From Streptosporangiaceae bacterium (GTDB lineage Bacteria; Actinomycetota; Actinomycetes; Streptosporangiales; Streptosporangiaceae), in NCBI GenBank assembly GCA_035308365.1, contig DATGGU010000012.1:93161-125160 (forward strand): a DNA stretch of 32,000 nt, in the 5' to 3' direction. The position numbers were made by a program, and so were the translations under genes. The notes beneath the pieces were generated by a model, which ran no database searches, was not told the DNA's origin, and was given only the letters and a program-made list of their open reading frames with translations. How positions within the stretch are numbered: position 1 is the stretch's first letter; each line of letters opens with the position of its first letter. Positions 16,754-18,498 of this stretch are shown one piece after another.

Positions 16754-17434
16754 GTGTCCTCGTTCGTCTTCATGAAGCTCCTTGAGACCCGGGCATCCCG
16801 CTACGACCGCGGGATGCGGTTGCTCACCTTCGGCCGGATCGGCGGGCTGTACCGGGCGATCGCCGGGCACATCCCACCGGGCAGCGAGGTCCTGGAGATC
16901 GGCTGCGGCACCGGCGGGCTCACCGCCGAACTGGCCGGCCGAGGCTGCCGGGTGACCGCGGTCGACCGCTCCCCCCAGATGCTCGCGATCGCCGCGCGCA
17001 AGCTGGCAGAGATCGATACGGCCGCGAGCCCGCGGCTGCTGCCCCTGTCGATCACCGGCCTGGACCGGACGTTCGGTGCCGGCGCGTTCGACTACGTCGT
17101 GAGCTGCCTGGTACTCAGCGAGCTGACGGCCACAGAGGAACGCTACGCGCTGGACTGCTCCGTCCGGCTGCTGCGCCCGGGCGGTGGCCTGGTGATCGCC
17201 GACGAGGTGCTGCCAGCGAACCCGGTGCGCCGGGTGATCTATCATGCGACGCGGCTGCCGGTGGCGGCACTGGCCTACCTGCTGACCCAGACGTCGAGCC
17301 ATCATCTCCGCGACATCGACGGCAAGCTGCGCAGCCGGGGGCTGGAGGCGGTCGAGCGGACGACGTTGCAGCACGGCTCGTTCGCCATCGTGGCGGGGAG
17401 GAAGCCGGCATGCCGTCTGCAGCCCCAGAAGTGA
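16754..17434 (+). CDS. Class I SAM-dependent methyltransferase
   Basis: 'GSEVLEIGCGTGGLTAELAGRGCRVTAVDRSPQML' and 'FDYVVSCLVLSEL...RLLRPGGGLVIADE'. Confidence 0.88.
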   Translation: MSSFVFMKLLETRASRYDRGMRLLTFGRIGGLYRAIAGHIPPGSEVLEIGCGTGGLTAELAGRGCRVTAVDRSPQMLAIAARKLAEIDTAASPRLLPLSITGLDRTFGAGAFDYVVSCLVLSELTATEERYALDCSVRLLRPGGGLVIADEVLPANPVRRVIYHATRLPVAALAYLLTQTSSHHLRDIDGKLRSRGLEAVERTTLQHGSFAIVAGRKPACRLQPQK

Positions 17435-18498
17435 CGGCGGCCCGCGCCGCCGCCACGGTGCCACCGCACCGGGCCTGGCTGCGTGAGCTGGTCCAGTTGC
17501 TGTTCCGCTCGTTTCCCTTCCATACCGAGCCGGGACTGCGCGTCTTCGGCACCCCCGGCCGGTCGGCTCCGGTGTTCGTAACCTGCAATTTCGACCATAC
17601 GGTCCGGATGGTCTCCCGGGTGCTCGGCCGTTATGACTGCTATCTGCTGGTCGCCCCGACGGGTGGCATGAACGTGTGGTGCGCGTCGGCCGGGGGTCAT
17701 TTCGGCACCGACGAGGTCGAGGCGGCCATCCGGCTCAGCAACATCGAGGACTTCGTCGACCACCACCGGTTAGTGCTGCCCCGGCTGGCGGCTCCCGGAG
17801 TGGATACAAAGGAGCTGCGCCGCCGGACCGGCTGGCGGGCCGTGTTCGGCCCGATCGAGATCGGCGATCTGCCGGCCTGGCTGGAGGGTGAATTCCCGCA
17901 CCTGGTGCCGGATCAGGTGCGCTTCCCGGCCCGCCGGCGTGCCGCGATGGGCGTCGGTGCCGCGCTGTGGCCAGCCGGCCTGATCGGCTTCCCGGCCGGC
18001 CTCATCGAGGGCTGGCAGACCGGGATGCTGGCCGCCGCGCTCGGCTATCTGCTGTCGGTACTGTTCGCGCTGGCCTACCCGTACCTGCCCGCCGAGCCGG
18101 GGCTGCGGCAGGCGGCTGCGCTGGGCGGGCTGCTTGGCGCCGCCGCGGCGGGCGGAGCCGTGGTCAGCGGCGGTGCGGTAGCGGGCCCGGTGTTCTGGGG
18201 GATCGCCCTGGCCGCACTCGGCCTGCTGATCGGGCTCGACTTCCCGAGCTGGTCGCCGACCGACGTGTGCAAGCAGCAGTTGCTGTGCTTCTTGTACCCG
18301 GCAACGCTGGCGCCCGCCGGGTTCCTGCCCACCGTGGACGAGCCGGCCTGCATCGACGGCTGTGACATCTGCGTGCGGATCTGCCCCAAGGGGGCGCTCA
18401 CCCTGAACGAACGGAGCAAGGCGGAACTCATCGACCCGGCGGACTGCCTGAGCTGTTACGCCTGCGTCCAGCAGTGCCCGGTCGACGCCATCAGCTGA
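17410..18498 (+). CDS. Fused HgcA/HgcB-like protein: CdhD/HgcA-type corrinoid domain, TM region and C-terminal 2x[4Fe-4S] ferredoxin
   Basis: 'PVFVTCNFDHTVRMVSRVLGRYDCYLLVAPTGGMNVWCASAGGHFGTDEV' and 'HRLVLPRLAAPGVDTKELRRRTGWRAVFGPIEIGDLPAWL' follow the HgcA pattern. Next come about 4-5 hydrophobic segments, then 'CIDGCDICVRICPKGAL' and 'CLSCYACVQQCPVDAI'. Confidence 0.82.
   Translation: MPSAAPEVTAARAAATVPPHRAWLRELVQLLFRSFPFHTEPGLRVFGTPGRSAPVFVTCNFDHTVRMVSRVLGRYDCYLLVAPTGGMNVWCASAGGHFGTDEVEAAIRLSNIEDFVDHHRLVLPRLAAPGVDTKELRRRTGWRAVFGPIEIGDLPAWLEGEFPHLVPDQVRFPARRRAAMGVGAALWPAGLIGFPAGLIEGWQTGMLAAALGYLLSVLFALAYPYLPAEPGLRQAAALGGLLGAAAAGGAVVSGGAVAGPVFWGIALAALGLLIGLDFPSWSPTDVCKQQLLCFLYPATLAPAGFLPTVDEPACIDGCDICVRICPKGALTLNERSKAELIDPADCLSCYACVQQCPVDAIS

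Follow-up and report, generated by a model that had tools for sequence, protein, structure and literature searches.

The gene at positions 17410..18498 (+) of a 32,000-nucleotide stretch from a Streptosporangiaceae bacterium (contig DATGGU010000012.1, positions 93,161 to 125,160; hereafter the window, meaning the whole stretch) encodes a protein in which a corrinoid domain like that of the mercury methylase subunit HgcA, a membrane region and a ferredoxin resembling HgcB are joined in one open reading frame (ORF). The protein almost certainly belongs to the HgcAB-like fusion family, which is already known, and it is a paralog, not an ortholog, of the mercury methylase HgcA/HgcB. Its gene overlaps that of CpaM, a class I S-adenosylmethionine (SAM)-dependent 'corrinoid protein-associated methyltransferase', and there is strong reason to think that the two proteins act together. 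In Actinobacteria this pair belongs to a five-gene cassette that includes a heavy-metal P-type ATPase and often lies near mercury resistance genes, and for which we tentatively propose methyl transfer to a soft metal.

What the fused HgcAB-like paralogs do has been a standing question since 2015, and surveys of Hg-methylation genes routinely detect them and then set them aside; which enzyme donates the methyl group to HgcA-type corrinoid proteins is likewise a standing question. The genomic context described here adds natural CpaM fusions, a five-gene cassette with a TPC-type ATPase and frequent merA/merB linkage in culturable aerobes, so that the function of the fused proteins becomes experimentally approachable. 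Cultured and genetically tractable aerobic carriers are Streptomyces sp. CNQ-509, Lentzea flaviverrucosa and Actinocrispum wychmicini.

A fused paralog of HgcA and HgcB

The gene and the features of its product are the following:

17410..18498 (+), HgcAB-like fusion protein gene, 362 aa; corrinoid-binding domain, four transmembrane (TM) helices and 2x[4Fe-4S] ferredoxin
17671..17697 (+), cap-helix motif NVWCASAGG, residues 88-96, read from the sequence
17929..18252 (+), four predicted TM helices, residues 174-281, from hydropathy and AlphaFold2
18268..18288 (+), CX5C pair C287-KQQLL-C293, located in the linker that joins the last TM helix to the ferredoxin, from the alignment
18349..18495 (+), C-terminal dicluster ferredoxin domain, Cys 314/318/321/325 and 346/349/352/356

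The ORF is a coding frame, with a G+C fraction at third codon positions (GC3) of 0.88 in a window of 68.6% GC. Its product matches the NCBIfam model NF043039, 'HgcAB-like fusion protein', at 301.8 bits against a cut-off of 285 (E 8.8e-90), and this match spans residues 25-362, corresponding to profile positions 2-350 of 350. By contrast, the true HgcA model NF040863 yields 130.8 bits against a cut-off of 275, over residues 37-180 only, and the HgcB model NF040864 yields 38.3 bits against 99. A profile search with HgcA and HgcB models, the check suggested in a first-pass annotation of this DNA, thus leaves both under cut-off, whereas the fusion model is passed. The control true HgcAs of three loci (L066, L071, L080) scored 382-439 on the HgcA model and under cut-off on the fusion model, so that the HgcA-type models separate the two groups in both directions. 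A search over 5.8 billion proteins recovered 67 relatives, with 72% identity to 'HgcAB-like fusion protein [Streptomyces sp. CNQ-509]' and 68% to a protein of Lentzea flaviverrucosa. Additionally, one genome per species was scanned (185,579 species), of which 502 had a relative, true HgcA included; the best 80 loci were analysed.

In Pfam, residues 36-157 match the C-terminal, corrinoid-binding part of CdhD (E 9.7e-15) and residues 314-360 match Fer4_7; together with the NF043039 match and the TM region, these domains bear out the proposal of the first-pass annotation that an HgcA-like and an HgcB-like part are joined in a single ORF. Judged from the sequence, the resemblance of the corrinoid and ferredoxin parts is not due to chance, which is excluded by the whole-protein NCBIfam E value (8.8e-90) and by E values of 1e-160 or better to dozens of homologs. 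The binding of a corrinoid and of two [4Fe-4S] clusters is predicted from visible ligand residues. Cys91 of NVWCASAGG is presumed to be the lower axial ligand of cobalt, and N88, V89, W90, C91, A92 and G95 are invariant among 44 family members, as are the eight ferredoxin cysteines, spaced CX3CX2CX3CP and CX2CX2CX3CP. Hydropathy and AlphaFold2 concur in placing TM helices at residues 174-200, 202-225, 232-252 and 258-281; the AlphaFold2 model was built from a 44-sequence alignment and has a mean predicted local distance difference test score (pLDDT) of 70.6, with about 80-95 in the TM helices. Since the number of helices is even, the corrinoid domain and the ferredoxin would lie on one side of the membrane, presumably the cytoplasmic one.

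A Foldseek search against the Protein Data Bank (PDB) gave as best match the published integrative HgcAB model 9a0b_A (E 3.7e-11, 31% identity, 275 columns), followed by large subunits of the corrinoid iron-sulfur protein (CFeSP) at root-mean-square deviations of 2.5-3.1 A. The fold is thus not an unrelated one, the outcome that the first-pass annotation had named as fatal to its reading. CFeSP is also reached by sequence search, which finds 4djd_C with an E of 3e-11 over residues 33-157. An Rfam search over the window found neither a cobalamin riboswitch nor any other RNA family.

Several features set the protein apart from true HgcA and HgcB. Its cap motif NVWCASAG departs from the N(V/I)WC(A/S)(A/G/S)GK of HgcA and lies outside the six HgcA motifs that Capo et al. 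(2022) accept at high stringency, and among the 80 genome loci the Lys of N(V/I)WCA(A/G)GK is missing from every sequence that is not true HgcA, including all CpaM-associated ones. The first-pass annotation read this motif correctly, with the cap Cys kept and the AGK portion changed, but overstated its novelty: the change is a family-wide trait of the known fused HgcAB proteins (PMC4646819; NF043039). The ferredoxin reads CLSCYAC instead of the C(M/I)ECGA of HgcB (Capo et al., 2022). It ends in ...QQCPVDAIS, without the vicinal Cys pair of HgcB, whose absence had likewise been rightly noticed at first pass. In contrast, the ferredoxins of L066 and L047 have CMECGAC and end in C(T/D)CG, and that of L066 reaches 108.8 bits on the HgcB model. 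HgcA is reportedly built with five C-terminal TM helices, against the four found in the window protein by both hydropathy and AlphaFold2.

In two of the loci with the canonical HgcA motif (L047:9980-11272 and L066:9848-11173), a single ORF runs into an HgcB-type ferredoxin (CMECGAC, C-terminal CxCG). The L047 sequence departs from its relatives just ahead of the HgcA/HgcB junction, and these single ORFs could be frameshift or assembly artefacts rather than real fusions.

Phylogeny, another of the checks suggested at first pass, leads to the same separation. In a neighbor-joining tree of the corrinoid domain (no bootstrap), the six NVWCAAGK sequences form one clade on a long branch, and the actinobacterial group is monophyletic and nested in the fused clade, beside Acidobacteriota. 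Fused proteins have been described as a separate clade that is sister to HgcA (Lin et al., 2023; PMC10083202). Fused HgcAB was found by Podar et al. (2015), and its carrier Pyrococcus furiosus makes no methylmercury (PMC4646819); likewise, Methanococcoides methylutens, another carrier, produced no methylmercury above controls (Gilmour et al., 2018; PMC5893877). The community protocol of Capo et al. (2022) urges caution for fused HgcAB proteins, and a 2020 preprint names the Streptomyces sp. CNQ-509 protein, together with that of Nitrospina, as 'HgcA-like'. The window protein does not represent a new type of enzyme: close homologs have already been annotated, and the literature mentions them too.

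With the fused HgcAB proteins of NF043039 (Pyrococcus furiosus, Methanococcoides methylutens, Kosmotoga pacifica, Streptomyces sp. CNQ-509) the window protein shares the one-ORF architecture, the cap type NVWC[AS]xxG without Lys, and the CpaM partner. Unlike other fused proteins, the actinobacterial subclade adds the CX5C pair before the ferredoxin, has a first cluster motif with CX3C spacing, and is hosted by aerobic actinomycetes. The CX5C pair is present in 9/9 actinobacterial sequences of the alignment and in 0/7 others, reading TD(V/A)CKQ(Q/E)(L/I)LC in all but one of the former, and is a candidate soft-metal binding site of this clade.

HgcA+HgcB of Pseudodesulfovibrio mercurii ND132 and other anaerobes have a homologous CFeSP-type corrinoid domain, a cap helix with Cys, a membrane domain and a 2x[4Fe-4S] ferredoxin partner, and the HgcAB-like protein probably works as they do, through a Cys-ligated methyl-corrinoid that is re-reduced by the ferredoxin. 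It differs in being one polypeptide of a different clade and in having a dedicated SAM methyltransferase partner, which true hgcAB loci lack. The CFeSP large subunit (AcsC/CdhE) of the Wood-Ljungdahl pathway shares one domain with the window protein, the homologous Rossmann-like corrinoid-binding domain. The window protein has neither the N-terminal [4Fe-4S] domain, nor the TIM barrel, nor the small subunit of CFeSP, and where the cap Cys stands CFeSP has Thr (alignment to 4djd_C). Moreover, CFeSP is soluble and receives its methyl group from methyltetrahydrofolate via the methyltransferase MeTr.

CpaM and the actinobacterial cassette

The other cassette genes of the window, and a regulator gene further downstream, are the following:

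16284..16748 (+), CC-motif membrane protein (~146-154 aa), first cassette gene, with N-terminal RSCCAQ; orthologs of about 148 aa in the same position
16754..17434 (+), CpaM, start at GTG 16754 or ATG 16772
18508..20511 (+), P1B-type heavy-metal P-type ATPase, starting 9 nt past the HgcAB-like stop; TIGR01525 at 504 bits against 346
20627..21319 (+), MerB-like organometal lyase, last gene of a + strand run; Pfam MerB PF03243 at 92.7 bits against 27
24531..24917 (+), ArsR/SmtB-family metalloregulator; NF033788 at 84.6 bits against 55

CpaM matches the NCBIfam model NF043040 at 250.8 bits against a cut-off of 180, as well as Pfam Methyltransf_25/11/12. The end of cpaM overlaps the HgcAB-like gene by 25 nt, an overlap that is kept in orthologs, and by a tblastn adjacency count a CpaM homolog lies directly upstream on the same strand in 72/80 loci. 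Two of the eight remaining loci are explained by contig ends and the other six are the NVWCAAGK loci, three of which scored as true HgcA, with three having a genuine arsenite methyltransferase adjoining hgcA. Furthermore, CpaM and the HgcAB-like protein form a single ORF of 589-663 aa in four genomes, with both NCBIfam models above cut-off and in the order methyltransferase, corrinoid domain, TM region, ferredoxin:

L063:5498-7429, Thorarchaeota
L072:7391-9313, archaeon
L019:9071-11062, Terriglobia
L033:5450-7219, Desulfobacteraceae

These fusions were scored by an NCBIfam domain check, as longest-ORF calling over-extends genes in GC-rich DNA. Two Hodarchaeota (L034, L041) have a weaker CpaM-like domain fused to an HgcA-like one, in an ORF that stops before the ferredoxin. 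Adjacency, the conserved 25-nt overlap and these repeated independent fusions are what argue strongly for joint action of the two proteins. In the parts of the literature covered by our search no paper describes this partnership, which appears as NCBIfam model names and, as 'ubiE', in a Nitrospina figure legend.

The SAM-binding motifs of CpaM, namely vLeiGcGTG, an acidic residue after beta-2 and aDEv, are conserved among 64 CpaM sequences, and its sole conserved Cys is that of the motif I GCGTG. Lacking any conserved Cys beyond GCGTG, CpaM is not a metalloid methyltransferase of the ArsM type, an assignment that was also tried by profile and rejected (NF008823, 25.7 bits against 263).

Three Chloroflexia have arsM directly beside true hgcA with NVWCAAGK (L047:9150-9899, L071:9090-9956, L080:11302-12105). 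The L047 ArsM scores 299 bits on NF008823 (cut-off 263), and ArsR-like matches lie just upstream in L047 and L071. These genes were considered as the CpaM of true hgcA and rejected, being bona fide ArsM with 28-35% identity to CpaM in the SAM core only.

The surroundings of the pair were compared in 15 distinct actinobacterial loci: the window, Actinocrispum (L001), Rhizocola (L002), an Actinomycetota metagenome-assembled genome (L003), Actinophytocola (L004), a Micromonosporaceae metagenome-assembled genome (L005), Streptomyces sp. CNQ-509 (L081), Lentzea (L082), the metagenome contigs L084-L089 and one contig without DNA. The cassette runs in the order CC-motif membrane protein, CpaM, HgcAB-like protein, TPC-type P1B ATPase, and then a DUF169 or a MerB-like protein, an arrangement not seen around fused HgcAB in the other sampled phyla. 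The CC-protein has no match in Pfam or NCBIfam, and a homolog search gave 4 close relatives only. Its start is probably ATG 16308, by comparison with P0068 (locus tag VKS82_02710), a public hypothetical protein of a Streptosporangiaceae metagenome-assembled genome with 100% identity, and the vicinal CC motif is present in 9/11 aligned ORFs, the remaining two being mis-called.

The P1B ATPase lies directly downstream of the HgcAB-like gene in 15/15 actinobacterial loci and adjoins it in none of the others. Its Pfam domains are E1-E2_ATPase and Hydrolase only, without an N-terminal HMA domain. Compared with A. fulgidus CopA (3j08), it has TPC for CPC in TM4, retains YN in TM5, and has HxxS(F) for MxxSS in TM6 (HCGSF in the window and HAASF in orthologs, against MAMSS in AfCopA); ITPCAF is invariant among 11 orthologs. 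Cu(I) pumps of the P1B-1 CopA type are recognized by CPC in TM4, YN in TM5, MxxSS in TM6 and an N-terminal HMA domain. This assignment was rejected for the window ATPase, with TPC instead of CPC, HCGSF instead of MxxSS and no HMA domain, YN alone being shared.

Among the 15 loci, the last cassette gene is DUF169 in 11 and MerB-like in two (the window and L086), the MerB-like gene of the window taking the place of the Cys-rich DUF169 of most cassettes. The cassette DUF169 protein (e.g., L081:13191-13898) has six conserved Cys, in SxCxFWR, HxNC, MCxC, GRPxCAALP and GCxGMRTFT, and no solved structural relative was found for it. The MerB-like protein stays under the NCBIfam MerB equivalog cut-offs (56.4 and 50.1 bits against 193 and 200), as does the one coupled to merA in Lentzea (68 bits), which points to a divergent subgroup of MerB in Actinobacteria. 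The MerB-like protein of the window shares 38% identity with the MerB-like genes translationally coupled to merA in L082 (Lentzea) and L084, and a profile of five MerB-like sequences matches MerB2 (5c17) and MerB (1s6l) with E values of 1e-26 to 1e-27. The residues C114-A-I-D117 and C176 are invariant, and C114, D117 and C176 we take to be the equivalents of the MerB catalytic Cys96, Asp99 and Cys159. A cyanovirin match from a single-sequence PDB search was discarded as spurious, the profile search having given MerB.

A divergent GntR-family regulator gene precedes the cassette in 11/15 loci and is absent from the window and L086. The palindrome TGTCCTATTGACATAGGACA is conserved in the intergenic region between the GntR and CC-protein genes, where it overlaps a -35-like TTGACA. 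This operator-like palindrome, also written as TGTCC(T/C)ATTGACATAGGACA, is present in L001, L003, L004, L005, L081, L082, L084, L085 and L089 (in L081 at about 8790-8815); the palindromic operator was not found in the window or L086.

Mercury resistance genes recur around the cassette. Within 10 kb, merA is found in 8/15 loci (TIGR02053, 563-582 bits against 454), merB or a MerB-like gene in 9/15, and an ArsR/SmtB regulator like that at 24531..24917 of the window in 9/15. The product of 24531..24917 is 62-78% identical to the ArsR adjoining merA in L001-L005, L081, L082 and L084, and may possibly regulate the cassette. Additionally, transposases, group II intron or Tn-type genes, or conjugation genes (type IV secretion system, T4SS) flank the cassette copies of L081, L082, L085 and L087. 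Cassette GC in the window is about 0.70, the same as in the flanks; hence no sign of recent acquisition is seen there, in contrast to the copies flanked by insertion sequences or T4SS genes elsewhere. The copy at L087:1-10927 is decayed: the HgcAB-like gene, cut short at its 5' end (308 aa), borders on a Tn-type element (TniQ, TniB, rve, two integrases), and cpaM and the CC-protein gene are lost while ATPase and DUF169 are retained.

A parallel exists in Nitrospina, whose HgcA-like genes are, in the published description, flanked by merR1, a ubiE-type methyltransferase, DUF169 and a metal-binding YHS protein (Villar et al., 2019, bioRxiv 648329). As far as that description goes, this is an HgcA paralog in organisms that are not strict anaerobes, with a partner set that matches the actinobacterial cassette (Gionfriddo et al., 2016; Villar et al., 2019). 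The two differ, by the same account, in having a MerR regulator there and GntR plus ArsR here, a YHS protein there and a P1B ATPase here, and a fused ferredoxin here.

A proposed methyl transfer to a soft metal and its rivals

From the arrangement of these parts we infer a methyl relay. CpaM would place the methyl group of SAM on the corrinoid, in its Co(I) state, beneath the cap helix that carries Cys91, and the fused dicluster ferredoxin would supply the low-potential electron that returns Co(II) to Co(I). The methyl group could then be handed to a thiophilic acceptor at the membrane face, held there by the CC and CX5C cysteines, and the P1B ATPase might export the substrate or the product. 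For a SAM- and corrinoid-dependent relay as such we consider the case evenly balanced. A soft metal ion is the most likely acceptor, given how often the actinobacterial cassette occurs on mobile elements and in the neighbourhood of merA, merB and an ArsR-type regulator gene; its mer linkage, together with the parallel case of Nitrospina (merR1, ubiE, DUF169, YHS), points to Hg(II) or a similar soft cation, an identification that we offer as possible and with some reserve. The model as a whole, in which methyl transfer to a soft metal is coupled to export, is accordingly a working proposal for which our confidence stays somewhat below the halfway mark. Of the substrates named in the first-pass annotation, Hg or another soft element, the mercury-like part has thereby gained circumstantial support, through the MerB-like gene of the operon and the merA, merB and ArsR genes beside orthologous cassettes. 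Should mercury or a related metal prove to be the substrate of the cassette, the reading of HgcA-like genes would change for oxic soils and oceans, where Nitrospina provides a parallel context.

Several observations weigh against a metal acceptor. The two cultured carriers of fused HgcAB made no methylmercury above controls (PMC4646819; PMC5893877). Methylation beside a C-Hg-cleaving MerB and a MerA looks futile for Hg, and merA was not found within 10 kb in 7/15 actinobacterial loci, the window among them; the window has neither merA, nor a DUF169 gene, nor a GntR gene. Having lost the first Cys of CPC and the Met in TM6 of Cu(I) pumps, the ATPase offers no known signature from which its substrate could be told. 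Beyond Actinobacteria, the sole recurrent neighbour besides CpaM is a TetR regulator, and the dedicated divergent regulator of the actinomycete cassettes is of the GntR type, with its own palindromic operator. TetR- and GntR-type regulators usually sense organic ligands, not metals. Additionally, the hosts are aerobic, whereas Co(I) and ferredoxin chemistry is oxygen-sensitive, and we know of no class I SAM methyltransferase that methylates a protein-bound corrinoid.

These points (the non-methylating carriers, the MerB/MerA futility, the regulator types, the mer-less loci and the missing precedent) make an organic substrate the main rival. CpaM and the HgcAB-like protein would then be a membrane corrinoid/Fe-S enzyme that methylates a small molecule or carries out reductive chemistry on it, and in the window this molecule might be an intermediate of the biosynthetic-type locus around the cassette. 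The ATPase and mer genes would owe their proximity to something else, for example a common resistance island. TetR stands upstream of cpaM in 24 non-actinobacterial loci, with amidase, short-chain dehydrogenase/reductase (SDR) and enoyl-CoA hydratase neighbours and no metal genes, and at the divergent promoter of the actinomycetes the GntR-type regulator comes with the conserved palindromic operator TGTCCTATTGACATAGGACA. In the window, moreover, the cassette ends a co-directional run of genes (10704..21319), and those genes are conserved with L086 at 66-74% identity. An organic substrate leaves unexplained, however, why the P1B ATPase follows directly in all 15 actinobacterial cassettes, why cysteines recur in the CC motif, the CX5C pair and the six conserved positions of DUF169, and why MerB-like proteins alternate with DUF169 in the last position, with merA linked in 8/15 loci and, by its published description, a merR/YHS counterpart in Nitrospina; the biosynthetic genes themselves differ in their arrangement around the cassette in L086 and are missing at the other loci. 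We regard this rival as rather unlikely, though serious; if true, it would reveal a new type of SAM/corrinoid membrane methyltransferase.

Within the soft-metal model, a stronger form can be stated, in which the cassette is an oxygen-tolerant, SAM-driven and corrinoid-dependent organometal former that acts at the membrane, methylating Hg(II) or some other soft metal, and exports the resulting methyl-metal cation. A monovalent R-metal cation would fit well with the one Cys in TPC, the MerB-like protein would serve self-protection, and in the biosynthetic-type loci of the window and L086 the product could be a toxic metabolite. This strong form is a long shot; were it true, aerobic soil bacteria would form methyl-metals, and CpaM would be the first methyl donor enzyme to be identified for a protein of the HgcA type.

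Selenium and arsenic, the other elements named at first pass, were weighed as substrates of a methyl- or carbon-transfer enzyme, perhaps one making an organo-Se or organo-As metabolite. The window holds all three genes of selenoneine biosynthesis, split between a senAB pair 10 kb upstream and selD ~5-8 kb downstream of the HgcAB-like cassette:

4900..6237 (+), senA; NF041186 at 483 bits against 420
6247..7257 (+), senB; TIGR04348 at 360 bits against 300
26345..27286 (+), selD/senC-type; TIGR00476 at 335 bits against 125

Together with an ArsR-rhodanese regulator gene, these genes favour such a reading, as do the adjacency of true hgcA to bona fide arsM in the three Chloroflexia and the nearest named NCBIfam relatives of CpaM, which include ArsM-type selenoproteins, through the SAM-binding core only. 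Yet no counterparts of senA, senB or selD lie near the cassette in any of the ten further actinobacterial loci included in the DNA comparison, and in the window unrelated genes separate the three from the cassette; as these genes were all that spoke for selenium in particular, that part of the first-pass suggestion is weakened. The arsenic part finds no support, since CpaM lacks the substrate-binding Cys of ArsM and falls far short on its model (25.7 against 263), and arsenic resistance genes were not found in any cassette locus. With the sen and selD genes missing at the ten other cassettes and the ArsM cysteines missing from CpaM, we rate a selenium or arsenic substrate as improbable.

The relay could also run in reverse, with the Co(I) corrinoid dealkylating or reducing an organometal as a second detoxification route alongside MerB, and with the ATPase exporting the released cation. 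Linkage to merB, merA and mobile resistance islands and the presence of MerB-like or DUF169 genes in the same operon would suit such a role, and Co(I) is a strong nucleophile and reductant. This direction would, however, leave CpaM without a role despite its intact SAM-binding motifs and the tightest coupling of all, up to gene fusion, and methyl transfer from Hg to cobalt is thermodynamically unfavourable; we therefore give it little credence.

Also improbable is a true mercury methylase making methylmercury in an aerobic actinomycete: the protein retains the cap Cys and NVWCA, the fold of the HgcAB model and an attached ferredoxin, and has mer genes near its orthologs, but it fails the HgcA and HgcB equivalogs and the published cap-helix and HgcB motif criteria, has four TM helices instead of five and no C-terminal Cys pair, belongs to a paralog clade whose tested members do not methylate Hg (PMC4646819; PMC5893877), and would have its product undone by a MerB of the same operon.

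The biosynthetic-type setting of the window

The window cassette forms the tail of the tightly packed + strand run 10704..21319, which comprises a pyridoxal phosphate (PLP)-dependent decarboxylase, MFS_3, a macrolide-type GT1, a GT8 and a hypothetical membrane protein, followed by the five cassette genes. Genes for a PhnD-like binding protein, an AurF-like protein, a cytochrome P450, the PLP decarboxylase, MFS_3, GT1, an AMP-binding enzyme and the ArsR-rhodanese protein recur, rearranged and at 66-83% identity, around the L086 cassette, so that the biosynthetic-type locus recognized at first pass is real and recurring. Such a setting is the minority case, found in 2/15 loci (the window and L086). 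The ArsR-rhodanese protein, an ArsR-family helix-turn-helix domain fused to rhodanese, is encoded at 8522..9178 (-) in the window and at L086:20635-21077, with 68% identity between the two.

The cassette is preceded by a 51-nt gap (16233..16283), at which one promoter-like feature was noted:

16229..16258 (+), sigma-70-like promoter match CTGACA-18-TATCAT, a weak match from a consensus scan that gave 3 sites against 1.2 expected

The gap also contains a 17-nt direct repeat, ATATTCGCCTTACCGGA / ATATTCGCCTATCCGGA, flanking a 7-nt inverted repeat, TATCATG-N4-CATGATA, that overlaps the -10 of the promoter match. These repeats may be a regulator site or may have arisen by chance.

Terpenoid-type genes surround senAB, encoding a class II cyclase like squalene-hopene cyclase, a UbiA prenyltransferase, a polyprenyl diphosphate synthase and a P450. 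Their positions in the window are the following:

1948..3651 (-), terpenoid-type gene
about 3679..4600 (-), terpenoid-type gene
7301..8332 (-), terpenoid-type gene
9348..10529 (+), terpenoid-type gene

A 1051-aa ORF at 3679..6834 (-) is mostly an antisense artefact over senA, and UbiA corresponds to its C-terminal part only.

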